Assembly: GCA_965261335.1 (NCBI GenBank)
Contig: OZ253450.1
Coordinates: 2,694,650 to 2,758,649 of the forward strand
Origin: Candidatus Spongiihabitans sp.
GTDB lineage: Bacteria > Pseudomonadota > Gammaproteobacteria > Arenicellales > Poriferihabitantaceae
Direction: 5' to 3'
DNA length: 64,000 nt
Shown: positions 25,969-44,410 of the stretch, piece after piece
Numbering within the stretch: the first letter of the stretch is position 1
Layout of the letters: each line of letters starts with the position of its first letter
The notes under the pieces: generated by a model
Told to the model about the DNA's origin: nothing
The model's database searches: none
Seen by the model: only the letters and a program-made list of their open reading frames with translations
Translations under genes and position numbers: made by a program

Positions 25969-25998
25969 TGTCCGAAAACATGGCACACTATTTCCAAA

Positions 25999-26445
25999 CT
26001 AACCTGAATTTCCGAGATATTTTTTATCGGATTCTTCGACCGGACCAACTGTCCATGCACCCCGTGTTCTGGCATGTTTAATCGCCGCATCTATCTCGCT
26101 TTGCCGAGCGTTTCTTGGTATCGTCAATATCTGTCCCGGATAAATCAAATCAGCGTCTTTAATTTGATCGAGATTAGCTTTGTAAATCAACGGCCAATTC
26201 TCTGGCACATTGTAAACCTCTTCTTCACTCGAAATAGTCCACAGACTATCACCTGTTATCACTGGCCAAGTAGACCCAGACCTAGACCCAACAACCGTAT
26301 CCACAACTGCATCTACAGGTTCTGCTGGCACCGCCACATCCGTCGGTTTGCTCTTCGCACTGATACAGCCAGTCGTCAGAATCGCAATAAACAAAGTGGT
26401 GATGAGTTTCAGTATTGATTTGTTATTTTGATGTATTCTTTGCAT
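25999..26445 (-). CDS. LysM-domain lipoprotein
   Basis: Lipobox ILTTGC and a C-terminal LysM (GDSLWTIS...ADLIYPGQILTIP). The start at 26445 is preferred over 26490. Confidence 0.7.
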   Translation of the reverse strand: MQRIHQNNKSILKLITTLFIAILTTGCISAKSKPTDVAVPAEPVDAVVDTVVGSRSGSTWPVITGDSLWTISSEEEVYNVPENWPLIYKANLDQIKDADLIYPGQILTIPRNARQSEIDAAIKHARTRGAWTVGPVEESDKKYLGNSG

Positions 26446-26584
26446 ACTAGGATGTCTCCTGTTTCTTAAATATTGAAGTAAATGTCGCAAAAAGCATGTA
26501 ACAAGCTCATGCTTCCTACCTGACGTAGTTTAACGCCCAATACCTTTTGTATGCAAGCAATAATTATAGATAATTTTCATAATA

Positions 26585-26940
26585 AGAGACATTTGCATAA
26601 ACCCACCCAGCGGCACCACTAAAATGGTAAAATAGCGTTCATTAAGGGCTTGTCGGTTAATTCAAAATCAGTCCAATTTTAAGAAAAGAAAATATTTAAT
26701 AACAAGGGCTTAAATATTCACAACAAACTAAAAACCCCATTTTCCGACAAGCCCATTAAATAAACCTTGAGGATACCGTCAAATGTCTTGGAAACAAACC
26801 GCCCAATACTCGTTCGCAGATGCCCTTTTAATTATTGAGCGTAAATCATTGTCCAAACTAGATGATATGCATGAAATTATCGATTGGAAACAGACAGAAA
26901 CCACGTTCAGCCATCTTTAATGCCTCCAAGTGCGGTGTGC
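26585..26940 (+). mobile_element. IS5-group element (same type as 37881-39097), 5' fragment carrying a MITE2 insertion
   Basis: Terminus GAGACATTTGCATAAACCCACC, then the leader and first approximately 50 codons (MSWKQTAQYSFADALL...). Homology to the intact copy stops at 26940. Confidence 0.75.
26646..26754. mobile_element. MITE2 copy 2
   Basis: GGGCTTGTCGG...CCGACAAGCCC flanked by the direct repeat ATTAA/ATTAA. Confidence 0.9.
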
Positions 26941-26959
26941 AGTTCAGGAAGCCCTATAA

Positions 26960-28168
26960 GGGCTTGTCGGTTAATAGATCGAAAGCATGAGATAATAACC
27001 GCGAAATTCAAAGCGGGTCTTATTTATGAACAAACGCCAACAAAACACGCTGTTTATAGCACTAGACGATCTGGTGCTAGCAAACCATCCCTATCGTAAG
27101 CTTGATGCTTTATTGTCATTCGATGAACTATCCAAACCTTACGTTAATCTCTAATTCGGCTAAAGGTCGCAAAGAAAAAGGGGTTGCCTTTGGCTTGCGC
27201 ACACTGGTTTTACCATTCATGGAATATATGAGCGACCGTGAAATGGAACGTTTTTTGCAAGAGAACAATTCTGGAAAATGGTTTTGCGAATTGAATTTAG
27301 GAGAGAAGTCCCCCGGATCACAGTTACTTTGGTGATTTTCGGAAACGACTGGGTACAAAAAACTTAATGACGATTTTTAACCGTGTTCGTAAAAGACTGA
27401 AGTCTATGGATTTAATTCGTGAAGTTTTTACCTTTGTTGATGCTAAGTCACTCGGGTGAGTAAGCTGACCACTTGGGACGATAGAGATCGTGCTATTAAG
27501 GACTGTTTAGAGAAGTTTAATAATAAGACGGCTGAAAAAATAGCAGTTGATAATGGGGGCTTTGGTTGTAAGGGCGTAACCAGTTTTGGTATGGTTATAA
27601 AAAACACGCATCGGTTGATATGCAGAGTGGTTTAATCAATAAGATTGCTGCCATATCGGTGGCAATAACCGATGCTGAAGGTGTTGCTCACGTTTGCCCC
27701 ACAGGAGGTGCTGTTTTTGGCGATAAGGGGACTGTGTGAACCCAGCCAAAACCACCCTCAAACGCAAAGGCTGTCATGATGCAACGATTAAGAAAGCCAA
27801 CATGAAAGGCAAAGATGCTAAAAAAGATGGTTGGCTTTCAGCGATGCGTTCACCTTATGAACGTGTCTTTGCTCACCGTAACCGGCGTGTTCGTTATCGT
27901 GGTTTGAAGAAGGTGCAATTTCAGGTAGGCATCCAGCACTGACTTTCAACCTCAAAAGAGTAATTACGCTGGGTTTTGAAAACATCAATTTGGTGCCTGA
28001 CTAGGGTCAATACTAGGATAAATTCGTCTTAAATTTATCTAAAGAACATGATTTAAGGCACCCATAGCCTAAAATAGCCCATTGGGACTTAAATAAAGCG
28101 GACTATTGTCCGTTTATTTGAACAAATATGTGAATTTTGACATTATTTTTTAATTAACCGACAAGCCC
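26960..28168 (+). mobile_element. Degraded IS5-family element with GGGCTTGTCGG termini (putative autonomous parent of MITE2)
   Basis: 1209 bp with the same 11-bp termini as MITE2. Transposase remnants lie in several frames (MNKRQQNTLF..LANHPYRKLD.., ..RVRYRGLKKVQFQ..). Flanks are TATAA/TATAC. Confidence 0.75.
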
Positions 28169-28181
28169 TATACGCTTGACA

Positions 28182-29057
28182 ATGTTCAAACTCCTGTGAA
28201 TCATGCAATGAATCATGCACATTGCTAGGCGTATAGGTCATTTTCTTGATAACCATATTCATCGGTATTGGCGTGCAGCTTAAATCCGTAGGTACTTTTA
28301 CGCCTGCCATCGGATGCCGTTTTCACGTTCCATGCCGCTTCTGGGTCTTGGGTATTGTCGCCTTGTTTGTTCTTTTTAGAACGGCATTGCTTCGCCTCAA
28401 TCACAGTCGCATCGATAATATTGACCGAGCCTGTGGCAACAATAAGACTGTTTTTAGCGAGATGATGATTGATCTGCACCAATAAAGAATCAAGCAGATT
28501 TTCGGTGTGTAATAAGTTCCTAAACCGCCAAATGGTGGAATGATCGGGTACTGCATCACTGAGGCTCAAACCAATAAACCGGCGGAACATTAAATCTTGG
28601 GCTATCTGTTCTTCTAAGGCTTCATCGCTTAAGTTATACCACGCCTGTAAAATCAGTATCTTAAACATCATCAAAGGTGGGCATACCCAAAGGGCACAAG
28701 TGCTGGCACACCGCACTTGGAGGCATAAAGATGGCTGAGCGTGGTTTCGATCTGTTTCCAATCGATAATTTCATGCACATCATCTAGTTTGGACAATGAC
28801 TTATGCTCAATTAAAAGGGCATCTGCGAACGAGTATTGGGCGGTTTGTTTCCAAGACATTTGACGGTATCCTCAAGGGTTTATTTAATGGGCTTGTCGGA
28901 AAATGGGATTTTTAGTTTGTTGTGAATATTTAAGCCCTTGTTATTAAACATTTTATTTTCTTAAAATTGGACTGATTTTGAATTAACCGACAAGCCCTTA
29001 ATGAACGCTATTTTACCATTTTAGTGGTGCCACTGGGTGGATTTATGCAAAGGTCTC
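28182..29057 (-). mobile_element. IS5-group element, partial inverted copy (lacks about 115 C-terminal codons) carrying MITE2 at the same site as the 26585 fragment
   Basis: Collinear with 38402-39097. Has small indels (an 11-bp duplication near 28205 and a 16-bp insertion near 28690). Ends ...GGATTTATGCAAAGGTCTC. Confidence 0.8.
28889..28997. mobile_element. MITE2 copy 3
   Basis: Same termini, flanked by TTAAT/TTAAT, the reverse complement of the copy 2 duplication. Confidence 0.9.
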
Positions 29058-29070
29058 AATATAATGATCC

Positions 29071-30227
29071 TTGAATTCACATAATAAGTGCAACACTCCT
29101 AAGTCAGTCAAAGGGTACACTCGTACTCTTTTAACTGAACGGAAAAAAGGAGTAAAACATGACGAGATATACCCATTTGACTGAACACGAAAGATACCAC
29201 ATTTACCTCATGAATCAGCAGCATTGTACACTGACAGAAATCGCTAAAACCATGGGCAGAAGTTAAGTCAACCATCAGCCGTGAAATTAAACGCAATACC
29301 AGGGGCAACGGCTATCACTACAAACAAGCCCACCGCTTTGCCCAAACGCGGCATAAGCAAAAGCACATCAGGCTCAATGACGAGTTAAAGATTCATATTC
29401 AACAAAAGATCGCACTGTATTGGAGTCCTGAACAAATTAGCGGTCGGCAAGAAAATGGAGGAAAACATCAGTATTAGCACCGAATCCATCTATCGTCTCA
29501 TTTTGAAAGACAAAGTAGCTGGTGGGTCGTTATATCGATACTTGCGCCATCAGGGTAAGAAATATCGCAAGTGTTATGGACAGAACGATTACCGCGGACG
29601 CATCCCCAATCGGGTTGATATTGCTGATAGACCCAGTATAGTGGACAGTCGCTCGCGTATAGGCGTAGTGATAGAGGGGGGAGGCTGATTGTGTTATCGG
29701 TAAAGGTCGTCAAGGGGTGTTTGCCACCCTTGCTGAACGCAAAAGTAGGCTTTATCTCGCACTTCGGACTAAGAACAAAACCGCAAAAGAAACCAACGCG
29801 GCTATACTCAGGTTGTTAAAGTATATGAAACAACATGTAATGACACTAACCTTTGATAACGACAGGGAATTTTGTTGGCATAGTGAGCAGTTCGGCGAAC
29901 TCACCGACCCGTTGCCAAACAACTCGAGTGTGAAACTTACTTCGCTAAACCGTATCACTCTTGGGAGCGTGGCTTGAATGCCAAATAATCATCTGGCACA
30001 ATGGCTTGCTCATATTTTTTGCTCAGGCTTTTTGCTCAGGCCGTTTTTTCCAAAGAAAATGCCTTTGCATAAAGTCACCGAAAAAGAGTTGTTCAAAGCG
30101 ACCGATTTAATGAATAACCGACCTAGAAAATGTTTGGGGTATAAAACCCCTTGGGAGGTCTTTTCCCACGCAATGGGAATAGATCATAATATAAACCCGA
30201 GTGTTGCACTTATGGGTTGAATTCGCC
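29071..30227 (+). mobile_element. IS30-family element, copy B (multiple frameshifts and small insertions)
   Basis: Ends TTGAATTCACATAATAAGTGCAACACTCC and GAGTGTTGCACTTATGGGTTGAATTCGCC. ORF pieces are at 29455-29688, 29717-29977 and 29978-30220. Confidence 0.85.
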
Positions 30228-30299
30228 TTATGTTTTTAATGAAAAAATCGAAAACTTTGGTTCTAAACCTGATTTATGCAAAATGCCCATTCATGCATG

Positions 30300-30934
30300 T
30301 TATTGTTTTATATGTAATCGCTGACTAATGTGTTCTTTGAACAGTTCCATTTCCGAATGGGAAAATAATGCGGCAACCAATAGCATATAATACGCAGAGA
30401 TTTCTGACAGTTCTTCATAAAAAGCCTGATGCTCGACCACAACCCATTTTCGATCAAATGCATGGCTGAATACCAACAGTAAAAAGGCAGCAATCGACAA
30501 ATACATGAAGAAATTAGAACGCAAATAAATATCCTTATAAGACCAATAGTGATGATACTCTTTCGCTAACATCGCTATGAGGGCAAAATAGGCAACAAAG
30601 AAAATCACTCGCCCTTCTTCAGCTAGTAAAAAAATGATAAATTGGGGGACATCAAACTTATCAACATCTACCTCACGAAACACAAAGATAAAACAGAAAA
30701 AGATGCACACATAATGCGGGACTGCCCCCCCCCCAGTCGTAATGACGAAATAAAAAATATCAGGCATGATAGAAGCAACATCACCACTTGAATGTTTTCT
30801 ATCCAACTGTTTTCCTTATAAATAAACTCATCATTATTAACCAATACCATAAACGCTAAGGTAAGATTAAGGACAATCAATATAGCCATGACAACGGCAT
30901 TTCTGGGTGTCATAAAATGTTTGATAATATCCAT
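30300..30934 (-). pseudogene. Multi-pass membrane protein of unknown function, reading frame broken at a G10 (plus-strand C10) tract
   Basis: ORFs 30668-30949 and 30300-30806 overlap in different frames, and both read GGG through the homopolymer at 30725-30734. One extra G would fuse them. Both halves are strongly hydrophobic. Confidence 0.55.
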
Positions 30935-30992
30935 CAAGCCCTCAAACAATCCCAGACACCCAGGTAGAAAACACTAAAACGTAGGAAGCCTA

Positions 30993-31385
30993 CTAAAATT
31001 TCTTATAGGCTTGCATCAAATCAACCATCGGATGGGTTTTTGCCATTTGGAATTTAACCAGCAATTCCCGTGCAATCATATCTCGGTCTTGTTGGTTATC
31101 CGGTAGTTTCAGGTCTTCTGGAACCTGTACCCAACCATTGATGTTGCGGTCGAATACCGCCGGTCGGCTTTCTTCATAGCCCATGTGGACATCTTCAAGC
31201 CAGTTCAAATCATCCCAGCCCATTATGTTCATGTACTTTTGCAGAAATTCCGGACAGCGATCCATATCGGGTACTAGATTCACATCATAGCGATAGCCGA
31301 TGTGTTGACCGATGTCTTTTTCTCTACCGGTATCCAATCCATCTGAGTCGATAAATTTATCGACATCTGTTGTGTTTGTAGTCAT
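30993..31385 (-). CDS. 130-aa acidic, Trp-rich protein of unknown function; last gene of the GS-like/GltS-like operon
   Basis: A good AGGAG sits 7 nt upstream of the ATG. There is only a 10-nt gap after the FMN-subunit gene. No motif recognised. Confidence 0.65.
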   Translation of the reverse strand: MTTNTTDVDKFIDSDGLDTGREKDIGQHIGYRYDVNLVPDMDRCPEFLQKYMNIMGWDDLNWLEDVHMGYEESRPAVFDRNINGWVQVPEDLKLPDNQQDRDMIARELLVKFQMAKTHPMVDLMQAYKKF

Positions 31386-31395
31386 TTTATAGCTC

Positions 31396-32736
31396 CTAAA
31401 ATCGGGTCAAATCAGGTCGCCCAACAGTATGTTGGGTGCCTGCCAGAGGAACTTGTGCGAGCGCAGAAGCCTCCATCGTTAATGCGGATAAATCTTCTGG
31501 CTCGAGCGAATGGATATTGGTCTTACCACAAGCCCGCGCCAAAAGCTGCGCTTCAATCGTCAGTGTATGCAGAAAGTTATAGACCCTTTCTGCGGCTTGG
31601 TCAGGATTAAGACGCTTACGCAGAATCGGGTCCTGAGTTGCCACACCTACCGGACAACGACCAGTATGGCAATGGTAACAGTGACCGGCTTCAACACCCA
31701 TTTCATTCTCGAAATCGGCTTCTGGAATATCTTTGTTGCAGTTCAACGCCATCAAAGCCGAATGACCGATGGCAACTGCATCCGCACCCAGGGCCAAGGC
31801 TTTCGCCAAATCACCGCCATTACGAATGCCGCCCGCATATACCAGCGATATTTCCCCTGATTTACCGACATCTTCAATCGCTCTTCGCGCTTGGCGGATA
31901 GCGGCAATGCCGGGCACACCGGTTTCTTCGGTGGCAAGGTGAGGTCCAGCACCAGTGCCGCCTTCCATACCATCGATATAAATCGAATCAGGTCCAGTTT
32001 TCGCTGCCATCCGCACATCATCATAAACCCGCGCAGCACCCAGTTTTAACTGAATCGGAATTTCGCCATTGGTCGCTTCACGAATTTCATTGATTTTCAA
32101 CGCCAAATCATCGGGTCCCAACCAGTCCGGGTGACGCGCTGGTGAACGTTGATCAATTCCAGCGGGTAGCGAGCGCATTTCTGCCACCTGATCGGTTACT
32201 TTTTGTCCCATCAAGTGTCCGCCAAGCCCGACCTTACAGCCTTGACCGATAAAAAACTCCACACAATCAGCAAGACGTAAATGGTTGGGATTGAAGCCAT
32301 AGCGGGATTGGATACATTGATACATCCACTTTTCGGAATAACGGCGTTCATCAGGAATCATACCCCCTTCGCCCGAACAGGTTGCCGTCCCCGCCATAGT
32401 CGCACCTCGTGCCAATGCGGTTTTAGCTTCATAGGACAATGCACCAAAACTCATACCGGTAATATAAACCGGAATGTCTAGTACCATCGGGCGCTTTGCC
32501 TTTGGCCCGATAATGGTTTGGGTGAGACACTTTTCCCGATAACCCTCAATGACAAAACGGGTTAGTGTGCCCGGCATAAAGGTTAAGTCATCCCAAGTCG
32601 GGATTTTTTTGAATAATGAGAAACCCCGCATACGGTAGCGTCCCAATTCGGCTTTGATATGAATATCATCCATCACCTCTGGCGGGAACATGAAACTTTG
32701 CCCTAGGTGACTGGTATCTCTCTTTGTTTTTAACAT
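31396..32736 (-). CDS. Glutamate-synthase-like FMN subunit (GltB central-domain homologue; MgsC/GlxD-like)
   Basis: GMSFGALS, the FMN-binding ISLVYAGGIRNGGDLAKALALGADAVAIG, and a Cys cluster CYHCHTGRCP. The start at 32736 (AAGGGGA RBS) is preferred over 32766. Confidence 0.85.
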   Translation of the reverse strand: MLKTKRDTSHLGQSFMFPPEVMDDIHIKAELGRYRMRGFSLFKKIPTWDDLTFMPGTLTRFVIEGYREKCLTQTIIGPKAKRPMVLDIPVYITGMSFGALSYEAKTALARGATMAGTATCSGEGGMIPDERRYSEKWMYQCIQSRYGFNPNHLRLADCVEFFIGQGCKVGLGGHLMGQKVTDQVAEMRSLPAGIDQRSPARHPDWLGPDDLALKINEIREATNGEIPIQLKLGAARVYDDVRMAAKTGPDSIYIDGMEGGTGAGPHLATEETGVPGIAAIRQARRAIEDVGKSGEISLVYAGGIRNGGDLAKALALGADAVAIGHSALMALNCNKDIPEADFENEMGVEAGHCYHCHTGRCPVGVATQDPILRKRLNPDQAAERVYNFLHTLTIEAQLLARACGKTNIHSLEPEDLSALTMEASALAQVPLAGTQHTVGRPDLTRF

Positions 32737-32772
32737 AATTAGTTTCCCCTTAATTATTGATAGCACTCACAT

Positions 32773-33612
32773 TTATAGTACCAATTTCTTCTCGGTCGGC
32801 TCAAGGTTATCGTAATTCCATAACTGCTTGCCGGCGACAAATTTCTTTAAGTTTTCGATACCACAAGCGGGCTCGATACCATATAGACCTAACTTTGTTT
32901 TTAACCATTTCATGTCGATGTCGTTCATTTCACCGGGCACACAATCAACCCCTAAATCTTCGACTTCACCACCAACAAAAATGGTGCCGTCATACATGGA
33001 ATCACCCAGATTTTTACCCGCATCACCGCAAATCACCATGCGTCCGCGTTGCATCATAAATCCAGTGAAGGCTCCCGTACGACCGCCGACGATGATGGTG
33101 CCACCTTTTTGGTCGATACCAGTTCGCGAACCGACATCGCCACGGCAGACCAAATCACCACCCCGAATCGCCGCCCCAAAGGTTGAACCAGCATTTTTAT
33201 CGATGACTACTTTACCTGCCATCATGTTTTCTGCACACGACCAGCCGACTCGACCAGTAATATGAATGTTCGGTCCATCAATCAATCCGCATCCGAAATA
33301 CCCCAGACTACCCTCAAACTTCAGGTTTAAGCGATTCAGGATGCCCACTCCGACACCGTGTTTGGCGCGCGGGTTTTTTACCGTAATGGAGCCATGACCA
33401 GATTGCATCAATGCACGAATTTTTAAGTTGATTGCGGATGGATCCATTGCTTCAGCGTCAAACTCCGCGGTTTTGTCAAAATCAACTTCATGTGCCCAAG
33501 GGTAGGTGAAATTCTCATCCTCAGTCGCACTAAAAAACCGCTGTTGCGTTCTGCCGGTCAACTGCTCGGCATGCAGACCCATGTCATGGGATTTGTGTTC
33601 TACACCTGCCAT
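32773..33612 (-). CDS. GXGXG-motif subunit (glutamate synthase alpha C-terminal-domain homologue; MgsB/GlxC-like)
   Basis: Repeated G-x-G-x-G beta-helix motifs (GSLGYFGCGL, GDVGSRTGI, GGRTGAFTGF, GDAGKNLGD). The start at 33612 has a GGAGG RBS. Confidence 0.85.
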   Translation of the reverse strand: MAGVEHKSHDMGLHAEQLTGRTQQRFFSATEDENFTYPWAHEVDFDKTAEFDAEAMDPSAINLKIRALMQSGHGSITVKNPRAKHGVGVGILNRLNLKFEGSLGYFGCGLIDGPNIHITGRVGWSCAENMMAGKVVIDKNAGSTFGAAIRGGDLVCRGDVGSRTGIDQKGGTIIVGGRTGAFTGFMMQRGRMVICGDAGKNLGDSMYDGTIFVGGEVEDLGVDCVPGEMNDIDMKWLKTKLGLYGIEPACGIENLKKFVAGKQLWNYDNLEPTEKKLVL

Positions 33613-34532
33613 ACTTTTACCTCCCCGTGATACGGATCCCAAGTTTCAATTTCATTCGGAAATATGCTACGGATAGCGACCTCTTCGGAAGCCAAACCAA
33701 CAAATTCCTCGCTTTCGTATAACACCATCGGCTTCGCTGCCATCACATCTTTTGCCATTCCTAGTTTGTCGCTGGTTGCAACCAGATAGGTGAAAACACC
33801 GTCTAGTTCATCGATAGAGCGATTCATGGCGGACTCGAGGTTATCGCCTTCGCTCATGCGGTCGGCGATATAAACGGCAATCAATTCCGAATCGCAATTA
33901 GACATAAAACGATGCCCACGGCGTTCCATGTTGCGGCGAAAGCTCCAGTAGTTGGTAAGCTGTCCATTATGCACCACCGAAACATCATTAAACGGATACG
34001 CCCAATAAGGATGCGCCGAACGAATATCCACATCCGATTCGGTCGCCATGCGCGTATGCCCGATGCCATGCGTCCCCTGAAAGGAGTTCAAGCCATATTG
34101 ATTAGAGACCACACCGGCATCGCCCAAGTCTTTGACCAATTCCAAGCCCTGCCCAATGGACAGAATTTCTACATTTTCTATATCTTCGACATAATCAGCG
34201 AGTTTTCTCATATCACCATCAAATGAAAACGTATAGCGATGGGAATATTCGGTTGCCCCATCGCGGCGGCTCACTGTTACACCCAATTTTTCCAGTCGGT
34301 CGTCAACTACTTTTTGGCGTTCGATCACTTTCTGATGTATGTCAAAACCTTTCATGTCATCCTGTTCGGCAACATTAAAGCGCATTACATACTGATTTTC
34401 AGTCGGATGTCCGTAAAGCGCGAAGCCAGTGGAATCCGGACCCCGATGCTTCAAAGATTGGAGCATCGATGTCATTTCGGCTCCCACATCAGAGATTTTT
34501 CCTCGATGTATTAGTCCTGCTATACCGCACAT
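33600..34532 (-). CDS. Class II (Ntn) glutamine amidotransferase-like subunit (MgsA/GlxB-like)
   Basis: Begins MCGIAGL with the catalytic Cys directly after Met. 310 aa, with GIGHTRMATES and VVHNGQLTNY. Confidence 0.85.
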   Translation of the reverse strand: MCGIAGLIHRGKISDVGAEMTSMLQSLKHRGPDSTGFALYGHPTENQYVMRFNVAEQDDMKGFDIHQKVIERQKVVDDRLEKLGVTVSRRDGATEYSHRYTFSFDGDMRKLADYVEDIENVEILSIGQGLELVKDLGDAGVVSNQYGLNSFQGTHGIGHTRMATESDVDIRSAHPYWAYPFNDVSVVHNGQLTNYWSFRRNMERRGHRFMSNCDSELIAVYIADRMSEGDNLESAMNRSIDELDGVFTYLVATSDKLGMAKDVMAAKPMVLYESEEFVGLASEEVAIRSIFPNEIETWDPYHGEVKVWQV

Positions 34533-34684
34533 TTTGCAAGTCCTCGTTAAGTTATTTGAAAAACATTAAAGCAAACTAAGATCGCTCGGCATTACCCCGA
34601 GCAGTCTAGCCACAATAAACCGTGATTAAACAAGCCGTATTAACGGCAGCGAAAAGTCCTGATTACCGCAAGGTACTCTATAAA

Positions 34685-36205
34685 CTAAGGCAAACAATCG
34701 AGATAATTTTCCAAGTCCCAATCGGAAACCGCATGATTAAATCGCTCCCATTCATCATTTTTATAGTGATGGTAAACCCGATACATTTCATCAGGCATGG
34801 ACGAGCGCACCACATCATCGTTTGCTAACTCTTTTAAGGCATCACCCAAATTCATCGGCAATTTCTTAACCTGCTTGCCCGCTTCCATCGCCGCATAGAT
34901 GTTACGCTCTTCAGGTTCACCCGGATCAAGGTTTCGCGATATGCCATCATCAAACACCTTGAGTAGTGCGCCTCCCATCAAGTAGGGGTTGACCATTGAG
35001 TCCACCGAGCGATACTCAAACCGCCCGGGGGCAGAAACGCGCAATGCACAGGTTCTGTTTTGGAAGCCCCAGTCAGCAAAAACAGGAGCCCAGAAACCAG
35101 TGTCCCATAAACGGCGATAGGAATTCACCGTGGAAGAGCCAATAGCGGTCAATGCACTGAGGTGATCAATGACCCCGCCGATTGATTTAAGACCAACAGG
35201 TCCGGGTTTGACCGCATCAATTCCCGGGTCTGGCATAAAATGGTTGGTGCCGCCTTCACGATAGGAAAAGACATCATTCATACCCGGAATACTTTTCTGG
35301 TGCAGTTTATTGACCACATCTTTACCGCCCGACCATAACGAAACATTATGGTGGCAACCCGATGCAGAGACATTCATAAACGGCTTGGACATGAAGCAGG
35401 CATGTAGCCCCTTCTCTCGTGCAACCTGTGCACAAATTTGACGATAGGTTGTCAATCGGTCAGCATTTCTCAATACATCATCAAACATCCAGTTCAATTC
35501 AAGTTGTCCGGGTGCGTCCTCGTGGTCGCCCTGAATCATATCGAATCCCATCTTTTCACCATATTCGATAACCTGCATAAACGCGGGGCGAAGCTCTTCG
35601 AATTGATCGATGTGATAACAGTTGGGTTTAGTAACCCCACCTTGTAATTGTTTATTTTCATCTAACTTGAGCCACATCATTTCTGGTTCGGTGCCGGCAC
35701 GCATGTGCATGTCGTATTTATTCTCAAACTCCTTATGAATCAGCTCCAAGTTGCCCCGACAGTCGGAAGTTAGGTGGGCACCAGGATTAACCCGTTCTTC
35801 ACGATTGCGGTAGCAGGTACAAAATACTCGCGCAATCCGTTTATCCCAAGGTAACTGCACAAAGGTCTCAGGGTCTGGAATACCGACCAGCTCCGATGCT
35901 TCCGGTCCATAGCCAATATAATCACCATGCCGGTCAATAAACAGGTTGGCGGTTGAGCCATAAACCAATTGGAAGCCTTTATCTGCGACACGTTCCCAAT
36001 GATCAGCAGGAATCCCTTTGCCGACAATTCGACCGGTGACGGAAACAAACTGGAAGTAAATATAGGTGACTCCAGTTTCTTTGATTTTGTCGCGTACTTG
36101 CTTGATTAAGTCCGCTCGTCCCGAGGCATTAACCCGTCGCTCCAAATCGGTTGATGTTTGCACCTTGCTGGTGGATTGTTTTGTCGTTACTTTCTTTTTA
36201 GCCAT
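34685..36205 (-). CDS. Glutamine-synthetase-family enzyme (gamma-glutamylmethylamide synthetase GmaS / GlnT-like)
   Basis: GS catalytic-domain motifs GTEPEMMW, GDHEDAPGQLELNW and NSYRRL. Lys-rich N-terminal extension. The start at 36205 has a GGAGAG RBS. Confidence 0.8.
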   Translation of the reverse strand: MAKKKVTTKQSTSKVQTSTDLERRVNASGRADLIKQVRDKIKETGVTYIYFQFVSVTGRIVGKGIPADHWERVADKGFQLVYGSTANLFIDRHGDYIGYGPEASELVGIPDPETFVQLPWDKRIARVFCTCYRNREERVNPGAHLTSDCRGNLELIHKEFENKYDMHMRAGTEPEMMWLKLDENKQLQGGVTKPNCYHIDQFEELRPAFMQVIEYGEKMGFDMIQGDHEDAPGQLELNWMFDDVLRNADRLTTYRQICAQVAREKGLHACFMSKPFMNVSASGCHHNVSLWSGGKDVVNKLHQKSIPGMNDVFSYREGGTNHFMPDPGIDAVKPGPVGLKSIGGVIDHLSALTAIGSSTVNSYRRLWDTGFWAPVFADWGFQNRTCALRVSAPGRFEYRSVDSMVNPYLMGGALLKVFDDGISRNLDPGEPEERNIYAAMEAGKQVKKLPMNLGDALKELANDDVVRSSMPDEMYRVYHHYKNDEWERFNHAVSDWDLENYLDCLP

Positions 36206-36292
36206 TTTTCTCTCCAATAATATATCGTTTAGTTAGTGGTTAAAATCGTGTGGTTGTTAGCCCAGTTACCGCTTTGTCCAGAAAGACGAATA

Positions 36293-37633
36293 TTAACTCC
36301 AAGGAAACGGGCTGTTGGATACCGGGTGTAACTTACCTTCAATATAGCGCGAAAAGCGAAATGGTTCCAATAGTTTGCTTTTTGAACCAACCAGTTCTGA
36401 GGCAACCAATTTACCAACCCCCAGCATTTTGTAACCATGATTAGAATCAGCAATGAAATAACAGTTGTCTCTAAATCGATCAAAAATCGGAAAACTATCG
36501 GGGGTAAACGCGCCTATTCCGCCAGACGGTTCATTATTGTATTTAGCCATCTGTCCCTCAAAACGCTTCTGACAATGGGCTAACGCCGACACCCACATAT
36601 GCGCAAACTCATCGCCCACAATAAACTCCGGCGAATCCACACCATAAGGATCAACATCAACCTGCTCGGGGTCGGTTTTCACCTTGAATGGTGCCGCCCC
36701 GCCCTGTATGCCATTGAAATGAAAGTCAGGCTTATAATAAATGCCCCACATTTCATCGGTAATCAACGAGCCATCCTCATCAGAGTACAGCGGCGCATTG
36801 GAATCAACATGAATCACCGGCGGCAATTGCCCATCATTGGTTTTTTGCATCTCCGGATCAACGCCGAGCGTGCCTTCTTGCAATGACCAGTAAACCCACA
36901 TCGGTATGTCTTTATGTATCTCGTTAGCGGATTTAATATCCACTGACTTGGGTAATTCGAGCATATCCCAGACTGTCTTTGCCCATGGTCCAGGTGCCAC
37001 AACCAATTGCTCGCAGGCAATGTTGCCCTTGTCGGTAACCACCGTTTTGATTGTGCCACTGGCATTGTCGCTTTCGAAGCCTGTCACCGTCACCCCGGTT
37101 AATATACGCACGCCCTGTGCTTCCGCCTTGCTGGCAAGCCCATACAATGACTTGGTATTATTCGCAAAACCACCCTTTTTTTCATGCAACACAGAGGTAA
37201 TGCCTTGCGCCTGCCAGTCATGGAACAAGCCTTTCATATAATTCGTCGATGCCTGCTCGCCTTCGATAAAGACCGATTCATATCCAATCTCTTTTTGCTG
37301 CTCGGCAATTGCTGCCACATCATCAAACATCGAATCAGGACTAATCTGCATATAACCGACCGGATGATAACTATAAGCAGTCGTGTCGCTTTCCCATACT
37401 TCAACACATTGTGCCATAAGTTCGCGCATCGCCGGTTGGAAATAATTATTTCTGACAACGCCACAGGCGATGCCTGAAGCACCCGCACCAATAGACGTTT
37501 TATCAACGATCAGTATATCACTCCCATCACCCTTGCCTTTGGCTTTGAGTTCTAACGCTAAATGGTATGCCGTGCTTAATCCGTGAATGCCGGCACCAAT
37601 AATCAGGTAATTACTGTGCTGAGGGAATGCCAT
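36293..37633 (-). CDS. FAD-dependent oxidoreductase of the DAO/sarcosine-oxidase-beta (SoxB/MgdA-like) family
   Basis: N-terminal Rossmann NYLIIGAGIHGLSTAYHLA, then GASGIACGVVRNNY as in SoxB-type enzymes. 446 aa. First gene of the operon. Confidence 0.75.
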   Translation of the reverse strand: MAFPQHSNYLIIGAGIHGLSTAYHLALELKAKGKGDGSDILIVDKTSIGAGASGIACGVVRNNYFQPAMRELMAQCVEVWESDTTAYSYHPVGYMQISPDSMFDDVAAIAEQQKEIGYESVFIEGEQASTNYMKGLFHDWQAQGITSVLHEKKGGFANNTKSLYGLASKAEAQGVRILTGVTVTGFESDNASGTIKTVVTDKGNIACEQLVVAPGPWAKTVWDMLELPKSVDIKSANEIHKDIPMWVYWSLQEGTLGVDPEMQKTNDGQLPPVIHVDSNAPLYSDEDGSLITDEMWGIYYKPDFHFNGIQGGAAPFKVKTDPEQVDVDPYGVDSPEFIVGDEFAHMWVSALAHCQKRFEGQMAKYNNEPSGGIGAFTPDSFPIFDRFRDNCYFIADSNHGYKMLGVGKLVASELVGSKSKLLEPFRFSRYIEGKLHPVSNSPFPWS

Positions 37634-37809
37634 GATTGATTTCTAGTATTAGTTAAAAATTTATGGTATATTTTTAGTACATTTATTTTGAATAGATTCT
37701 ATACCATTCTCTAAATAAATGTAACAAAGACTATTTAACCACTAACTCTGCCCAGTTTACAATACCTAATCGACCAATATTTGAGTTATTGTATATACCA
37801 TTTATAAAC

Positions 37810-37880
37810 CATTTTACAGGAGCCTAGTTTTTGTCTGCTAGCAAGGAGAAAGTGCGCGAAATGAGGGAGTTTATACTTAT
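37810..37880. mobile_element. MITE1 half-copy (degenerate), abutting the IS5-group terminus
   Basis: CTAGCAAGGAGAAAGTGCGCGAAATGAGGGAGTTTATACTTAT matches the left arm of copies A and C. The left terminus is degenerate. Confidence 0.55.
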
Positions 37881-39097
37881 GAGACTTTTGCATAATCCAC
37901 AAAACACCCCTCGCAACTCACAAACAACGTGATTTTTTATAAATTTGCCTCATTTTTTCGCCCATGTTCTCTCAATCATCAATACGACACCAAAAAAGCC
38001 GCTATTTCGGCACTTTTAACCACTTTTAGTGGGTTTTTATCTGTTTTATTGCCCATTTAGGCACAACTCTCCTTTAAACGTTGCAGTTCTTTGAAAATAT
38101 TCATCCCAGTTTTAAGGTTATGGCTCATGGCAATCAGATGTGCGCGGGTTTTGTTTCTGGCTAACCCCATGTATCTTGCCTTGCCTAATCCGTGATGCAG
38201 TTTGAGCAAACCAAAGGTGCGTTCAACCACATAGCGGACACTGCTATACATTTTATTCAGTGCTTTTTGTTGCTCCGTTAATGGTGTGTTGCGATAAGCT
38301 CGGTGCAGGATTCTATTGTTTTCTTTACCCAGTTTCTCGTCATTGTCTTTGTTGGCATAGGCACTGTCTGCGTAAACTTGTCCGTGCCTATCGCCTAACA
38401 GATGTTCAAACTCCTGTGAATCATGCACATTGCCAGGCGTATAGGTCATTTTCTTGATAAAACCATCTTCATCGGTATTGGCGTGCATCTTAAATCCGTA
38501 GGTGCTTTTACGCCTGCCATCGGATGCCGTTTTCACGTTCCATGCCGCTTCTGGGTCTTGGGTATTGTCGCCTTGTTTGTTCTTTTTAGAACGGCATTGC
38601 TTCGCCTCAATCACAGTCGCATCGATAATATTGACCGAGCCTGTGGCAACAATAAGACTGTTTTTAGCGAGATGGTTATTGATCTGCACCAATAAAGAAT
38701 CAAGCAGATTTTCGGTGTGTAATAAGTTCCTAAACCGCCAAATAGTGGAATGATCGGGTACTGCATCACTGAGACTCAAACCAATAAACCGGCGGAACAT
38801 TAAATCCCGGGCTATCTGTTCTTCTAAGGCTTCATCGCTTAAGTTATACCACGCCTGTAAAATCAGTATCTTAAACATCATCAAAGGTGGGTATGCTGGC
38901 ACACCGCGCTTGGAGGCATAAAGATGGCTGAGCGTTTTTTCGATCTGTTTCCAATCGATAATTTCATGCACATCATCTAGTTTGGACAATGACTTATGCT
39001 CAATTAAAAGGGCATCTGCGAACGAGTATTGGGCGGTTTGTTTCCAAGACATTTGACGGTATCCTCAAGGGTTTATTGAATGAACGCTATTTTACCA
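37881..39097 (-). mobile_element. IS5-group insertion sequence, most complete copy; the transposase-proximal terminus is cut off by an IS30 insertion
   Basis: Terminus GAGACTTTTGCATAATCCAC at 37881 is the inverted match of GAGACATTTGCATAAACCCAC at 26585. The leader sequence is interrupted at 39097/39098 by the IS30 end GGCGAATTCAACCC. Confidence 0.8.
38057..39052 (-). CDS. IS5-family (IS5-group) DDE transposase, apparently intact
   Basis: 331-aa uninterrupted ORF, collinear by eye with E. coli IS5 InsH (..WYNLSD.A.E.., ..DATIIEA.., ..ARY.GL.KN..). Confidence 0.85.
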   Translation of the reverse strand: MSWKQTAQYSFADALLIEHKSLSKLDDVHEIIDWKQIEKTLSHLYASKRGVPAYPPLMMFKILILQAWYNLSDEALEEQIARDLMFRRFIGLSLSDAVPDHSTIWRFRNLLHTENLLDSLLVQINNHLAKNSLIVATGSVNIIDATVIEAKQCRSKKNKQGDNTQDPEAAWNVKTASDGRRKSTYGFKMHANTDEDGFIKKMTYTPGNVHDSQEFEHLLGDRHGQVYADSAYANKDNDEKLGKENNRILHRAYRNTPLTEQQKALNKMYSSVRYVVERTFGLLKLHHGLGKARYMGLARNKTRAHLIAMSHNLKTGMNIFKELQRLKESCA

Positions 39098-40200
39098 GGC
39101 GAATTCAACCCATAAGTGCAACACTCGGGTTTATATTATGATCTATTCCCATTGCGTGGGAAAAGACCTCCCAAGGGGTTTTATACCCCAAACATTTTCT
39201 AGGTCGGTTATTCATTAAATCGGTCGCTTTGAACAGCTCTTTTTCGGTGACTTTATGCAAAGGCATTTTCTTTGGAAAAAACTGCCTGAGCAAGCCATTG
39301 TGGTTTTCATTCAAGCCACGCTCCCAAGAGTGATACGGTTTAGCAAAATAAGTTTCACACTCGAGTTGTTTGGCAAGCTCACTATGCCAACAAAATTCTC
39401 TGCCGTTATCAAAGGTTAGTGTCATTACATGTTGTTTCATATGCTTTAACAACCTGAGTATAGCCGCGTTGGTTTCTTTTGCGGTTTTGTTCTTAGTCCG
39501 AAGTGCGAGATAAAGCCTACTTTTGCGTTCAGCAAGGGTGGCAAACGCCCCTTGACGACCCTTACCGATAACACAATCAGCCTCCCAATCGCCTATACGC
39601 GAACGATTGTCCACTATACTGGGTCTATCAGCAATATCAACCCGATTGGGGATGCGTCCGCGGTAATCGTTCTTGCCATAACGCTTGCGATATTTCTTAC
39701 CCTGATGGCGCAAGTATCGATATAACGACCCACCAGCTACTTTGTCTTTCAAAATGAGACGATAGATGGATTCGGTGCTAATACTGATGTTTTCCTCCAT
39801 TCTCAAACGACCGCTAATTTGTTCAGGACTCCAATACAGCGCGATCTTTTGTTGAATATGAAGCTTTAACTCGTCATTGAGTTTGATGTGCTTGGGCTTT
39901 TGCTGATGCCTCCGTTTGGGCAAAGCGGTGGGCTTGTTTGTAGCGATAGCCGTTGCCCCCGGTATTGCGTTTAATTTCACGGCTGATGGTTGACTTAACT
40001 TCTGTCCATGGTTTTAGCGATTCCTGTCAGTGTACAGTTTTGCTGATTCATGAGGCAAATGTGGTCTCTTTCGTGTTCAGTCAAATGGGTATATCTCGTC
40101 ATGTTTTACTCCTTTTTTCCGTTCAGTTAAAAGAGTACGAGCGTACCCTTTGACTGACTTAGGAGTGTTGCACTTTGACTGACTTAGGAGTGTTGCACTT
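39098..40200 (-). mobile_element. IS30-family element, copy C (longest ORF 291 aa, but the N-terminal HTH is out of frame and the left IR is truncated)
   Basis: Right end GGCGAATTCAACCCATAAGTGCAACACTC at 39098. ORF 39105-39980 contains the DDE core. The N-terminus MTRYTHLTEHERDHICL... stops at TAA after 35 codons. The last approximately 15 bp of the left IR are missing. Confidence 0.8.
40151..40200. repeat. 25-bp perfect tandem duplication (TGACTGACTTAGGAGTGTTGCACTT x2) of the inner part of the IS30 left IR
   Basis: Read directly. The units are 40151-40175 and 40176-40200. Confidence 0.9.
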
Positions 40201-40212
40201 AAAAATGATACG

Positions 40213-41760
40213 TAGTCAGCCCTTAAAAACATCTAAACAGTTTGATTTATATCAATAAAACAAACAAAACCATTAACCAAATCAACCGCTTTATGTTAGA
40301 ATAACCGTTGTTTTCTGGTCGTTTTAGTTAAAAAATTATGCTGACTCCATCTACCCCAAACACAGGGCAACAAAATCTGTTTCATACCGAATTGTTCTCT
40401 CAATTAGACCCACGAGACCCTTTAATCCAATTAGCCAACGTCATCGACTGGAAGGTCTTCGAGGATGCATTTAGCAAACACTATTGCCACGATAACGGCA
40501 GACCCTCAAAACCAATACGCTTAATGGTCGGGTTGCTGATGCTCAAACAACTGGAAAACCTGTCCGATGAGAATGTGGTCTTACAGTTCAAGCGTAATCC
40601 GTATTATCAATACTTCTGCGGTTATCCAACCTACACCCCAAACGTGCCTTGCAATGCAACCGAACTGGTGCATTTTAGAAACAGAATCGGTGTCGCAGGT
40701 TTTGAACTCATTTTTAAGATGAGTGTGATGTTGCACGGCAAAAAAGCTAATGAAAACACTGTTTTGATTGACACCCCTGTTAAAGAAGTTAAAAACAGGA
40801 AAAAAACATCACCTATCCGACTGATTCTAAACTAGCCATCAAAATTATCAACCGTCTCAACAAATTGGCGAAAAAACATGGCATCAAACAGCGCAGAACC
40901 TTTGTAAAAGAAGTTAAAAACTGTCGCTTACGCATTCGCCACTTCCGCCATGTTAAAAAGCGTACATCCGCTAAAAAGGCATTGAAACGATTGCGAACCA
41001 TTGCTCATATTTTAATCCGAGAACTACAAAGGAAACTACCCCAACACGGACTGCTTGAAACCTATCAACCAGACTTCTTGCTCTATCAACGGGTGTTGGC
41101 ACAACAACCCAAAGACAAAAACAAAATTTATTCCCTGCACGAACCCCATGCTTATGTGATTTCTAAAGGCAAAGACCACAAACGCTATGAATACGGCAAC
41201 AAAGTATCCATCGTCTCGGGCAAAGACAGTAACATCATTGTCGGCGTTGTCAGCCATAAGAAAAACCAGCATGATGCAAAAACCCTACCCGATGCGATAA
41301 AACAAGCCAATAGCAACAGAACAAAACCCATCAAACAAGCGGTCTGCGACAGAGGCTATTGTGGGGTTAAACAAGTAGGCGATACGGCCATCATCCTGCC
41401 GAGCAAAGCCCTGAAAAAAGACAATCGTTATCAAAGAGATAAAAAACGCAAATTGTGTAGGCGACGGGCTGCCATAGAACCCATTATTGGGCATTTGAAA
41501 TCTGATTTTAGGTTATCCAGAAACAGGCTTAAAGGACAAGTTGGCGATGAAATCAATGTTTTAATGGCTGCTTGTGCCTGGAATTTGAGAAAGTGGCTGG
41601 TTTTTTGTCACGTCTGCTATTTATGGCTTAAAAAAGCGCGTTTTGTCCATATTTTTGGTAAAAAGCCCTTGGTCCATTTGATTCAAGGTTGATTCACGTT
41701 CGCTGAGCGGCAGCTTGAAATATATTTTTACTTGTTAGATCGGTTTTTAAGGGCTGACTA
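40213..41760 (+). mobile_element. IS5/IS1182-superfamily element (1548 bp), with the transposase in two frames
   Basis: 18-bp perfect termini TAGTCAGCCCTTAAAAAC / GTTTTTAAGGGCTGACTA. ORF 40338-40835 has the InsH-N-like ..GRPSKPIRLMVGLLMLKQLENLSDE... ORF 40865-41692 continues the DDE domain. The frames switch at an A7 run (40800-40806). Confidence 0.8.
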
Positions 41761-41813
41761 AATAGATATGCTGTGATGATATACAGGATAGAGACGCTTA
41801 GCTGTAGTGGTAA

Positions 41814-42559
41814 TTAGGTAGAATTAAGGATAGCCATGACGAAAAACAGAGAAATAAACGCTATTGAAAAAATAGATATTCTGACCCATCCAGAAGGTTT
41901 TGCGTAAACCCTGAATCCCGTTGATTCATCGTAACTCGTTTGTTTTCCCTTCCCGAGTCGACTTGATTGATTTGCGAGGGTAAAGAGATGTATCAATGGT
42001 AGGCCAAATGCAAGCCCACTTGCCCATAAAGAAAGATTGCGACCCAGATATTGTCCAAAGCCTAATGCTTTTCCATTTAGCGTTGTAACTTTCAGGCCAA
42101 GTATCGCTTTTCCAAGTGTATTACCTGCGACCTCGTAGATTAAGGCATCAAGCACTAATGCCACAGGCAAACAAGCGAATCCAAACAGTTGGGCTACACC
42201 TGGGACGTTAATCCATTCAATAAAACTCGCAGAGTAAATTGCGAGCGTATAGCTGCTACAATCGAAACAGCCAAGAGTTGCTACCATACGTTAAATGTTT
42301 GAGCGAAAAACCTTGGCCATTTTTTGTCCAACGGAAAATTCAACACTTCAGGCTCATACTTCGGAGGGAGAGGCGGCGGAAGAGTTACCTTTAGAGACTC
42401 AAGCACATCTACATATTCAAGAGGTTTCCATTCGGGCATTCCTTCTTGCCACACCATTGTATTCGGAGTGATTTTCCCATTTTGAAATAATTTTGAAAGC
42501 TATTCTGTTCGGATTGGCCCGACATTTTTACTCTTTTCTGAGTACCACCATTCGCTCAT
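41814..42559 (-). pseudogene. GYF_2 (DUF4339)-RDD family membrane protein, inactivated
   Basis: N-terminus MSEWWYSEKSKNVGPIRTE-TAG-LSKLFQNGKITPNTMVWQEGMPEWKPL has an in-frame TAG at 42500-42502. There is a frameshift near 42290 before the RDD-type TM region (ORF 41814-42287). Confidence 0.65.
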
Positions 42560-42646
42560 GTGTGCGCCTTGTTTATTCGTCTGTGTTTTCAGGTTAAAAC
42601 CCCCGTCTTTAGACGGGTAGCTTTAAGATGGCAGTTGTCTTTATGA

Positions 42647-44410
42647 CCCCAATCCGCAGATAGAAACCCCTAAAACGTAAGGAGCCTTGGGGTATAATGG
42701 TTTGCACTAAAACCTTCCATCACCTAATGGGTGTGCAACTCAAGGCTTATGACTGTGCTATCATACAAACTCGATACAACGAACGATTTACTCACATCTC
42801 GTGCCAGTTTATTGGCTATCTCTCAAGTAATGGACTCCCTGAACATGTCTGAGCGAATCGATAAGCACTTCCCTCTGCCAAAAAGTAATCGTGGGTACCC
42901 GCCCTCTAAATTCACCAAGATATTCATCCTGATGCGGCATGAAGGCAGTTTTCACTTGGATGAGGTTCGCCATATTCAAGATGATGAGGCGTTGTGTACT
43001 GTGTTGGATATGAATAAACTTCCCCAAGCGACCACGCTTGGAGGTTGGATCAGGCGGATTGGAATAGATCCGCAAATCCATGTTGCCCATGGTGGCTTGG
43101 GCGAAGGTCAATAACGCCGTATTGAAGGCAGCCTTGCATCGCTGTAAGAAAGTGACGCTGGACATTGATGCCGCTGAAATTGTTGCCCATAAAGCCCAAG
43201 CACAGTGGATTTACAACAAACGCAAAGGCTTTATGCCGATGGTCGGGCATGTTGCGGAAACCGGGCAGATTGTGGACGTAGATTTCCGTCAAAGCATGTG
43301 CCGCCAGCGAAAGGTAATCTGGCGTTTATCAAGCAATGCCAGCAGTCATTACCCGAAGGTTGTGCCGTGAGTGCCCTGCGTATTGATGCTGCAGGCTACC
43401 AAACAAAAATCATTGAATATTGCGATACGGAAGGGGCTTGTCGGAAAATGGCGTTTTTAGCTTGTTGTGAATATTTAAGTCCTTGTTATTAAATATTTTA
43501 TTTTCTTAAAATTGGACTGGTTTTGAATTAACCGACAAGCCCGGAAGGTATCGAGTATGCCATTTGAGCCAAGACCAGTGCGGCTATGCACGCGCAGATA
43601 GCAGTGGTAAGTGCTTCGGACTGGATACCCTTCCTCGATAAAAAAGGCAAAGCGGTCAGGATACCTACCGCACCAGCTTCTGTATCGGTGACTATGCAAA
43701 AGCCTTCACCTCGATCATTCAGAGAACAGCCGTTATAGGTCAAACGAGTCTGGATTTAGGTTCACCCGATAATTCAGATGAAATAAACTCGGGTGCTTAT
43801 ATTTATCGTGCGATTGCCACTAATCGGCCACCAATCAGGATGGACTAAGCGATAGCGAGATTGTCCGCTGGCCAATTATGACTAATATGGCAACGTGGCG
43901 AGGACAGCGAGCACCGAATCAAGGAACTGAATCTGGATTTTGGCGACACCCTGCCGTGTTCAGATTTTGCTGCCAATGCACTGTACTTTTTAATTTCCGC
44001 ACTTTCCTACAATTTATTTGCCCTCATGCGTCAGTTACTGCCGGGGGAGTTGTCCCAGCATTGCCATGACTCTGCGCTGGCGTTTGTACGCCATCGCGGC
44101 AAAAGTGGTTAGAACGGGATGTCAACTCTTGGTCAAAATGCGGGAAAATCACCGAATACTCCTAGAACAAGTGCGGCTGGCACTGAATAGGTTTGAAGCA
44201 CCGCCTATTTAACCCGATACAGAACAAGCGTAACGGCTTCTGCAGGATAGGTGCATCCAAAACAACCAATTTTAGCACTGACAATCCGCTGATCAACGGT
44301 TTTTGAGTAAAACTCTCGGCAATATCTGCGGTAATTGCCAGCCATAAGACTTGAAAGAGAGATTCATAGGCTCTTGAAGCACTAGTGCTACTCTATCTGG
44401 GGATTTGGGA
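42647..44410 (+). mobile_element. IS1380-family element, transposase heavily frameshifted and interrupted by MITE2
   Basis: Imperfect termini CCCCAATCCGCAGATAG / CTATCTGGGGATTTGGGA. Pieces read MTVLSYKLDTTNDLLTSRA... and ...AAKVVRTGCQLLVKMRENH.... About 1650 bp without the MITE. Confidence 0.8.
43434..43542. mobile_element. MITE2 copy 4, inside the IS1380 transposase gene
   Basis: Same termini, with a perfect 5-bp duplication GGAAG (43429-43433 and 43543-43547). Confidence 0.9.

Follow-up and report, generated by a model that had tools for sequence, protein, structure and literature searches.

A divergent and widespread gene module, proposed as a relative of the glutamate-mediated methylated-amine pathway, in Candidatus Spongiihabitans

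The operon and its six genes

Our analysis concerns an operon of Candidatus Spongiihabitans sp., a gammaproteobacterium of the order Arenicellales. The window is the whole stretch of 64,000 nucleotides that was analysed (contig OZ253450.1, positions 2,694,650 to 2,758,649), and window coordinates are counted from its first letter. Six co-directional open reading frames (ORFs) lie on its minus strand. They were recovered at the limits given in the initial annotation, and five of their products give strong Pfam matches: DAO (PF01266, E = 9e-34), Gln-synt_C (PF00120, 6e-76), GATase_6 (1e-15), GXGXG (PF01493, 5.5e-16) and Glu_synthase (PF01645, 7e-89), all far beyond chance. In the order of the operon, the genes are:

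37633-36293, minus strand: divergent DAO-superfamily FAD flavoprotein, 446 amino acids (aa), first gene of the operon
36217-34685, minus strand: glutamine synthetase (GS)-like protein, 510 aa, a predicted GmaS-like gamma-glutamyl-amine synthetase of a separate clade; alternative start 36205
34532-33600, minus strand: MgsA-like N-terminal nucleophile (Ntn, class II) amidotransferase subunit, 310 aa, N-terminus MCGIAG
33642-32773, minus strand: MgsB-like GXGXG subunit; likely start 33612 (279 aa), as called on sister contigs
32766-31396, minus strand: MgsC-like FMN glutamate-synthase-domain subunit; likely start 32736 (446 aa), according to sister contigs
31385-30993, minus strand: 130-aa protein (S130), a probable accessory subunit; starts 10 bp past the FMN gene

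Gene callers on the sister contigs also placed the start of the GS-like gene four codons later, giving a product of 506 aa. An Rfam scan near the operon found no RNA family, and promoter and terminator scans were not informatively above shuffles. Public sources label the genes of the module only as "glutamine synthetase", "FAD-dependent oxidoreductase" or "hypothetical protein". The initial annotation had allowed for the six-gene arrangement being already characterised in other taxa; no such description, and no expression or genetic data on the family, was found in full-text searches of the literature. The five-gene module from the GS-like gene to S130 is apparently unstudied.

The ligase, the synthase-like trio and their partners

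By whole-sequence score, the GS-like ligase belongs to no curated family. It scored 242.7 bits on the GlnA model TIGR00653 (type I GS, cutoff 429) and 209 bits on the PuuA model NF045547 (cutoff 650), and it also fell below the cutoff of the GlnT/GmaS model discussed further on. Its best sequence match in the PDB was an archaeal GS (207 bits), and it shares 35% identity with the GS of B. subtilis. In a phmmer alignment with the latter enzyme, Asp53' (the Asp50' loop) pairs with Tyr86 (or Val85) of the ligase, and the flap residue Glu304 pairs with Trp376. Since both the Asp50' and the Glu-flap residues are replaced, the ligase is not an ammonium glutamine synthetase.

The pocket points to another substrate. 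In the crystallised GmaS of Rhodovulum (RhGmaS; PDB entry 7cql), the methylamine site is formed by Y147, Q175, D177, E179, E186, N188 and K30' (PMC7948447). We rebuilt the 7cql sequence from the printed alignment, verified the numbering of the paper on 18 named residues, and aligned it with the window ligase and 48 family members. The window ligase matches all seven (as Y201, Q229, D231, E233, E240, N242 and K67), and likewise W300, R312 and R317 (R312 corresponds to R388, and the tryptophan lies at W376). All ten residues are invariant in the 48 family members, except for one gapped sequence at K30'. The Q175/D177/N188 triad is common only to the family and two crystallised GmaS enzymes, and is lacking in true GS. 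It is also lacking in a GS-like paralogue of one related locus (L028, 15631-17046), which has D/V/D instead of Q/D/N, scores 351 bits on TIGR03105, below the cutoff, and shares its island with the core module and a canonical mgsA.

In a neighbour-joining tree with 100 bootstraps and the few references available, the family formed a clade of its own, apart from both GmaS (7cql, 9qur and the GmaS of loci L052, L053 and L080; 100%) and GS (100%). The ligase therefore branches neither with ordinary GS nor inside GmaS. With the ammonium residues of true GS missing and the amine pocket of GmaS complete, its initial assignment to the gamma-glutamyl-amine type holds up well. Judged from sequence, the ligase is predicted to work like GmaS, yet it lies outside the GmaS equivalog. 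The Lys-rich N-terminal extension noted at the outset is present, but it is confined to the Arenicellales and sponge-symbiont lineage.

The next three genes have the composition expected of MgsABC, with an Ntn amidotransferase, a GXGXG protein and an FMN domain as three subunits in that order. The amidotransferase carries GATase_6/7 domains and an N-terminal Cys, and its translation contains the motifs HTRMAT, HNG and CDSE, which correspond to the class II Arg, Asn-Gly and Asp-Ser-Glu. The Rhizobium pPR2 island served as canonical reference. The window trio shares ~35/43/53% identity with the MgsA/B/C-type proteins of this island, and the canonical mgs sets in related loci share 51-80%. Within the family, the FMN subunit is 85-96% identical across all related loci. 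In domains, order and amine pocket, the middle four genes appear to work like gmaS plus mgsABC, as had been proposed. An early idea that the trio represents DmmABC was rejected, as Dmm consists of DmmA-family, PDR/VanB and DUF3445 proteins.

Two other observations concern the trio. Near some cores lies a third GltS-like system (L050, 16934-19800; L059, 401-3264; also in L030 and L044), which consists of an amidotransferase and a fused GXGXG-FMN protein of ~650 aa preceded by an XRE-cupin regulator, and which is 37-45% identical to the window subunits. In a SAR324 locus (L090, 8672-9022), a plant-type 2Fe-2S ferredoxin gene lies directly 3' of S130, which hints that the synthase may draw electrons from ferredoxin in some lineages.

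The sixth protein, S130, is the most constant member of the module. It matches nothing in Pfam or NCBIfam, but it has more than 8000 homologues (70-100% identical), with 64 invariant columns over Gammaproteobacteria, Alphaproteobacteria, Acidimicrobiia and one genome of Eremiobacterota (Candidatus Cybelea). The earlier view of an unrelated orphan can thus be abandoned. A phmmer scan of 1.84 billion representatives returned 260 matches, nearly all of them fragments with 60-80% identity, and no remote relatives. A sequence search of the PDB gave nothing meaningful. An AlphaFold2 (AF2) model of the protein alone reached a pLDDT of 75-92 over residues 40-127 and predicted the invariant N-terminal 35 residues to be disordered; the invariant arm reads IGQHIGYRYDVNL. 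The best Foldseek match of the model in the PDB had E = 0.6, which allows no fold assignment. Wherever both genes could be seen in a related locus, that of S130 comes next after the one for the FMN subunit. Because of this invariant adjacency and the extreme conservation, we infer that S130 is a dedicated accessory subunit, with an N-terminal arm that folds onto a partner. Three apparent fusions of S130 were discarded: P0333 and P0373 seem to be frameshifted gene calls, and P0247 a chimeric one.

The flavoprotein that opens the operon is less well defined. PF01266 covers only its residues 9-225, and the SoxB/MgdA model TIGR01373 gave 66.3 bits (cutoff 529) over residues 8-214 only. In a PDB profile search only the N-terminal ~230 aa found matches, namely PDH-beta, SoxB, dimethylglycine oxidase and L-amino acid deaminase. 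With the Mgd-like SoxB of related loci it shares 26-29% identity over ~230 aa. Its own homologues number more than 8000, and the best 120 listed are 76-100% identical. Apart from this divergent flavoprotein, the 64-kb window contains no SoxA/D/G-like or MgdA-like genes.

Relatives, proposed pathway and alternatives

A genome scan found S130 in at least 588 species-level genomes, among them those of Arenicellales, sponge symbionts, SAR324 and Dongiaceae. One carrier is the cultivable Virgifigura deserti SYSU D60014 (L038). Eighty loci were fetched; the neighbour counts given here use the 47 loci of at least 18 kb, and the homologue tests use ~90 loci. The order GS-GAT-GXGXG-FMN-S130 (GAT, amidotransferase) was kept in every fetched locus (n = 80) with enough flank. 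The flavoprotein gene lies directly upstream of this core in ~23 of the 80 species-level loci, which completes the six-gene order in both Alpha- and Gammaproteobacteria. Hence, a view of the operon as the speciality of a sulfur oxidiser is not supported. The accompanying statement that the host carries sox genes found no support either, as none occurred among the 30 non-operon, non-insertion-sequence ORFs of at least 150 aa scanned in the window.

The neighbourhood of the core is rich in genes of methylated-amine metabolism. A GntR/FCD regulator lies divergently upstream of the core in at least 54 loci, and among the full loci the most frequent neighbours were GntR (42/47), an unknown protein of 192 aa (c7; 32/47), the DAO flavoprotein (20/47, ~40%), an Amt-family transporter (20/47), Tdm (DUF1989+GcvT; 20/47), a Tmm-like FMO (11/47) and Mgd-like SoxB/SoxA proteins (MgdA/C-like; 10/47). 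Any methylated-amine-type neighbour was present in 39 of the 47, and other one-carbon neighbours were folD and genes for GcvT-domain proteins. For instance, one island (L088) reads tmm-SDR-tdm-GntR followed by DAO-GS-GAT-GXGXG-FMN-S130, and in SAR324 loci the order is tdm-GS-GAT-GXGXG-FMN-S130-(ferredoxin), accompanied by DAO and c7 as a convergent pair. The c7 protein (~192 aa; for example L006, 10448-11026, and L090, 9057-9653, besides 45 other loci) often stands just after S130 or DAO. It shows only a sub-threshold match to a bacterial PH domain and does not occur in the window. It was considered as a DmmA analogue and dismissed, as it has no NCBIfam match whereas true DmmA scores 114 bits.

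We consider it somewhat probable that the six genes form a native operon for a paralogous 'second type' of the glutamate-mediated methylated-amine pathway. In a first step, the active-site residues suggest that the GS-like enzyme would use ATP to ligate a small methylated amine, most probably monomethylamine, to the gamma-carboxyl of glutamate. By homology to MgsABC and GltS, the Ntn subunit would then hydrolyse the gamma-glutamyl amide and hand the amine to the FMN subunit, with the GXGXG subunit as a scaffold, and the amine would join the carbon of 2-oxoglutarate/iminoglutarate to yield N-methylglutamate. S130, as its adjacency and conservation suggest, would be a dedicated accessory subunit of this synthase. 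Finally, and this is the weakest step, the DAO flavoprotein might oxidatively demethylate the N-methylated glutamate to glutamate and a one-carbon unit. In the relatives, control would lie with the divergently transcribed GntR/FCD regulator.

The canonical N-methylglutamate pathway consists of gmaS, mgsABC and mgdABCD, as in Methyloversatilis, Methylocella, Ruegeria, Paracoccus and, as glnT-glxBCD, Rhizobium. Like this pathway, the module has a ligase without the ammonium residues and with the full GmaS pocket, a trio in A-B-C order and, in its relatives, adjoining tdm, tmm, amt, folD and mgd-like genes. In contrast to it, the ligase gene stands at the head instead of at the end, an additional and invariant gene for a 130-aa protein is present, the regulator is of the GntR/FCD type instead of the GlxA/XRE-cupin type of Rhizobium pPR2, and a divergent single DAO gene is often attached. 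Moreover, the Rhizobium pPR2 island runs mgdDCBA, glxA, a helix-turn-helix regulator, mgsABC, glnT, purU, dmmD, DmmA, PDR/VanB, DUF3445, tmm ... tdm, whereas dmmABC is never adjacent to the module. The two types also differ in their vehicles: canonical gmaS occurs on 245 plasmids, and S130 on none of 72,556.

Several points weigh against this reading. The ligase failed the equivalog model for GlnT/GmaS (TIGR03105), with 297.3 bits against a cutoff of 469.6, whereas the canonical GmaS of the related locus L053 scored 671.3 bits. Likewise, it scored 175 bits against 7cql, where the GmaS of L053 scored 607, and its overall identity to RhGmaS is only 31%. Homologues of tdm, tmm, amt and mgd are absent from the 64-kb window. 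The structure model of the flavoprotein was unusable (AF2, alignment of 26 sequences, mean pLDDT 48). In six loci the flavoprotein gene occurs together with Mgd-like SoxB/SoxA genes, and a solitary homologue was seen close to a SoxBDAG cluster. The role of the flavoprotein as an N-methylglutamate oxidase is therefore putative, and the original suggestion that a single SoxB-like flavoprotein replaces MgdABCD is not supported, given its adjacency in only ~40% of the loci, its co-occurrence with the Mgd-like genes and its low score on the SoxB model. Finally, seven loci carry the module and a canonical mgsABC in one island, with gmaS adjoining in L053. Such islands argue against plain redundancy, and hence against an identical substrate. 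In L052 and L080, too, a canonical gmaS is located close to the core.

An alternative explanation, which we regard as rather doubtful, is that the module acts on dimethylamine (DMA) and takes the place of the DmmDABC monooxygenase, which these islands lack. Two routes can be envisaged. Ligase and synthase could convert DMA to N,N-dimethylglutamate, which the flavoprotein would demethylate to N-methylglutamate for Mgd to finish, in parallel to the succession of dimethylglycine oxidase and sarcosine oxidase. Alternatively, the flavoprotein could oxidise DMA to methylamine, which then enters the module. In line with a role in DMA use, Tdm, whose product is DMA, was found in 30 of the ~90 loci and Tmm in 16, and the tdm gene of SAR324 is co-directional with the core. 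Homologues of DmmA, DmmB and DmmC were found in none of these ~90 loci, and the module takes the position that dmmDABC occupies next to tdm/tmm in canonical islands, although it has no sequence relationship to DmmA, the PDR/VanB reductase or the DUF3445 protein. In the canonical islands on plasmids, tdm (139 records) and dmmC (147 records) are distributed almost identically over the organisms. The presence of the module beside canonical mgsABC-gmaS, and of DAO beside Mgd-like genes, suggests non-redundant roles. In particular, the combination of DAO with SoxBDAG-type genes in six loci is as expected for two successive N-demethylations, as known from dimethylglycine oxidase/dehydrogenase and heterotetrameric sarcosine oxidase. 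Previous studies add that abundant marine Gammaproteobacteria lack dmmDABC (Lidbury et al., 2017, PMC5520151) and that RhGmaS takes DMA weakly (PMC7948447).

However, the amine pocket equals that of methylamine-specific GmaS residue for residue. The absence of dmm genes covers only ~10 kb around the core, and 17 locus tags separate tdm (Spo1562) from dmmDABC (Spo1579-1582) in R. pomeroyi (PMC5520151). An isolate of UBA868 (Arenicellales) has been reported with DMA oxidation genes, in a 2026 preprint that infers an N-methylglutamate route from annotation (bioRxiv 10.64898/2026.04.01.715867). DAO is not enriched with Tdm, which occurs in 8 of the 20 DAO-positive and 12 of the 27 DAO-negative loci; the window itself has no tdm. 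Unlike dimethylglycine oxidase, the window flavoprotein lacks a GcvT/folate domain and is similar in its FAD-binding half only. In a more far-reaching reading, which we regard as less likely than not, the module and DAO would form a separate, unrecognised pathway of methylated-amine catabolism rather than a redundant methylamine route, most plausibly the missing DMA-consuming step in lineages that have tdm and lack dmmABC (SAR324, Arenicellales/UBA868, sponge symbionts, Woeseia and Dongiaceae), with S130 as a new kind of synthase subunit.

It is unlikely that the pathway serves another primary amine, such as ethylamine, ethanolamine, a polyamine or a taurine-derived amine, via a gamma-glutamyl intermediate in the manner of Puu or Ipu. 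A GS-like ligase beside a DAO-family oxidase is also the signature of PuuA/PuuB, and the nearest hosts include sponge symbionts living on host-derived amines. Yet the ligase falls far short of the PuuA model, no aldehyde dehydrogenase or hydrolase of the PuuC/PuuD type occurs among the recurrent neighbour families, and the GltS-like trio is foreign to Puu. Moreover, the pocket is identical to that of GmaS, and the neighbours are tdm, tmm, folD and genes for GcvT-domain proteins.

Insertion sequences (IS) do lie on both flanks of the operon, as the initial annotation had noted. The features concerned are:

24380-25510: IS30-like copy, with 92-93% identity among the copies
28209-28889 and 38417-39082: IS5-like copies
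29068-30227, plus strand: IS30-like copy with degenerate transposase ORFs in the downstream flank, 92-93% identical to the other two
30303-30934, minus strand: gene for a 213-aa membrane protein, split into two frames, downstream of S130
37634-37880, minus strand: retained upstream region of ~247 bp with a promoter-like site at 37725-37696
38057-39052, minus strand: IS5-family transposase in the upstream flank, in place of the GntR gene
39098-40175, minus strand: inverted IS30-like copy in the upstream flank, with 92-93% identity among the copies

The inverted IS30-like copies at 29068-30227 and 39098-40175 bracket the operon, which could suggest a recently acquired cargo of an IS30/IS5 composite transposon. 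This is very unlikely. With three IS30 and several other IS copies in the window, flanking is expected by chance. The GC and GC3 of the operon match those of the housekeeping genes of the window, where the surrounding genes encode NusA, IF-2, TruB, RlmN, HisS, BamB, Der, PntAB, RNase R, FadJ and GroEL. L082 (3505-11372), a sister contig of the same sample, is 99.5% identical to window positions 37880-30019, and collinearity with the sister contig, including der/bamB/hisS, extends over 20519-37880, small IS differences aside. In other strains of the sample the operon recurs, flanked by different IS copies. By sequence, its closest relatives come from genomes of related Arenicellales and sponge symbionts, and the module is chromosomal in hundreds of species. 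Given the native composition, the collinear sister flank, the differing IS flanks and the lack of a plasmid match, the earlier idea of mobile cargo is unsupported. The operon is native and chromosomal, and it would encode a deeply divergent and very widespread version of the glutamate-mediated methylamine pathway.

An unusual GS/GOGAT pair for ordinary ammonium assimilation is barely credible: the module shares with GS-GOGAT its folds and the principle of an ATP-made gamma-glutamyl amide whose nitrogen passes to 2-oxoglutarate on an FMN/Fe-S domain, databases name the ligase 'glutamine synthetase', its best PDB match is a GS and Amt-family transporters are frequent neighbours, but both ammonium-specific catalytic residues are replaced, the TIGR00653 score is far below the cutoff, the clade is separate from GS, the GltS domains lie on separate polypeptides, the central domain and the NAD(P)H small subunit being absent, and the context is one of methylated amines.

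Apparent loss of the regulator gene in this genome and wider implications

Sister homology stops at 37880. Beyond this point L082 runs into the GntR gene, and the window into IS5/IS30 elements (37634-38056 versus L082 2746-3504). The GntR/FCD gene is present beyond the breakpoint in loci L081-L085 and missing from the window. In this assembly, the IS pile has removed the regulator gene; the join at 37880 may be an assembly artefact at a repeat, and the operon may be deregulated in this strain. The pile is part of a genome-wide IS expansion: more transposase ORFs lie at 40338-41692, and the sister contigs add IS1595 and IS630-like genes. Such a heavy IS load, spread over 24380-30227 and 37881-45000 of the window, fits the pattern of a recently host-restricted symbiont.

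Downstream of S130, a tblastn search with the intact L082 product placed residues 1-87 of the membrane protein at 30934-30674 and residues 89-213 at 30677-30303. A frameshift or a sequencing error would account for the split. The protein matches nothing in Pfam or NCBIfam, and its family seems confined to this clade. On a sister contig of 3x coverage (L086, 1766-4426), the GS-like and amidotransferase genes are fragmented; either the operon is decaying in one strain, or the low coverage has introduced errors. Elsewhere in the window, a Rieske/ring-hydroxylating oxygenase alpha subunit of 406 aa is encoded on the minus strand at 55705-56925. It presumably resembles the glycine-betaine or carnitine monooxygenase type, and it could feed methylated-amine metabolism. 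The plus strand at 1318-2934 encodes a type II restriction-modification pair, in which a gene resembling adenine-specific DNA methyltransferases precedes one for an EcoO109I-family endonuclease (Pfam 2e-87).

The operon is not special to this host, and for the host itself our results have a more modest meaning: an IS-ridden relative of sponge-symbiont Arenicellales has kept the operon intact and has apparently lost its GntR gene. The wider relevance concerns the family. The gmaS gene is used as a marker for oceanic methylamine users, and the scarcity of dmmDABC underlies the proposed "dimethylamine bottleneck" (PMC5520151, PMC7948447). If the module assimilates methylamine, marker-based counts underestimate the users of methylamine. 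If it acts on DMA, the bottleneck needs rethinking, and surveys based on gmaS and dmm markers would overlook this capacity, since the ligase carries the plain annotation 'glutamine synthetase'. S130, with its 64 invariant positions and neither remote relatives nor a fold match, offers a clean target for structural and biochemical work.

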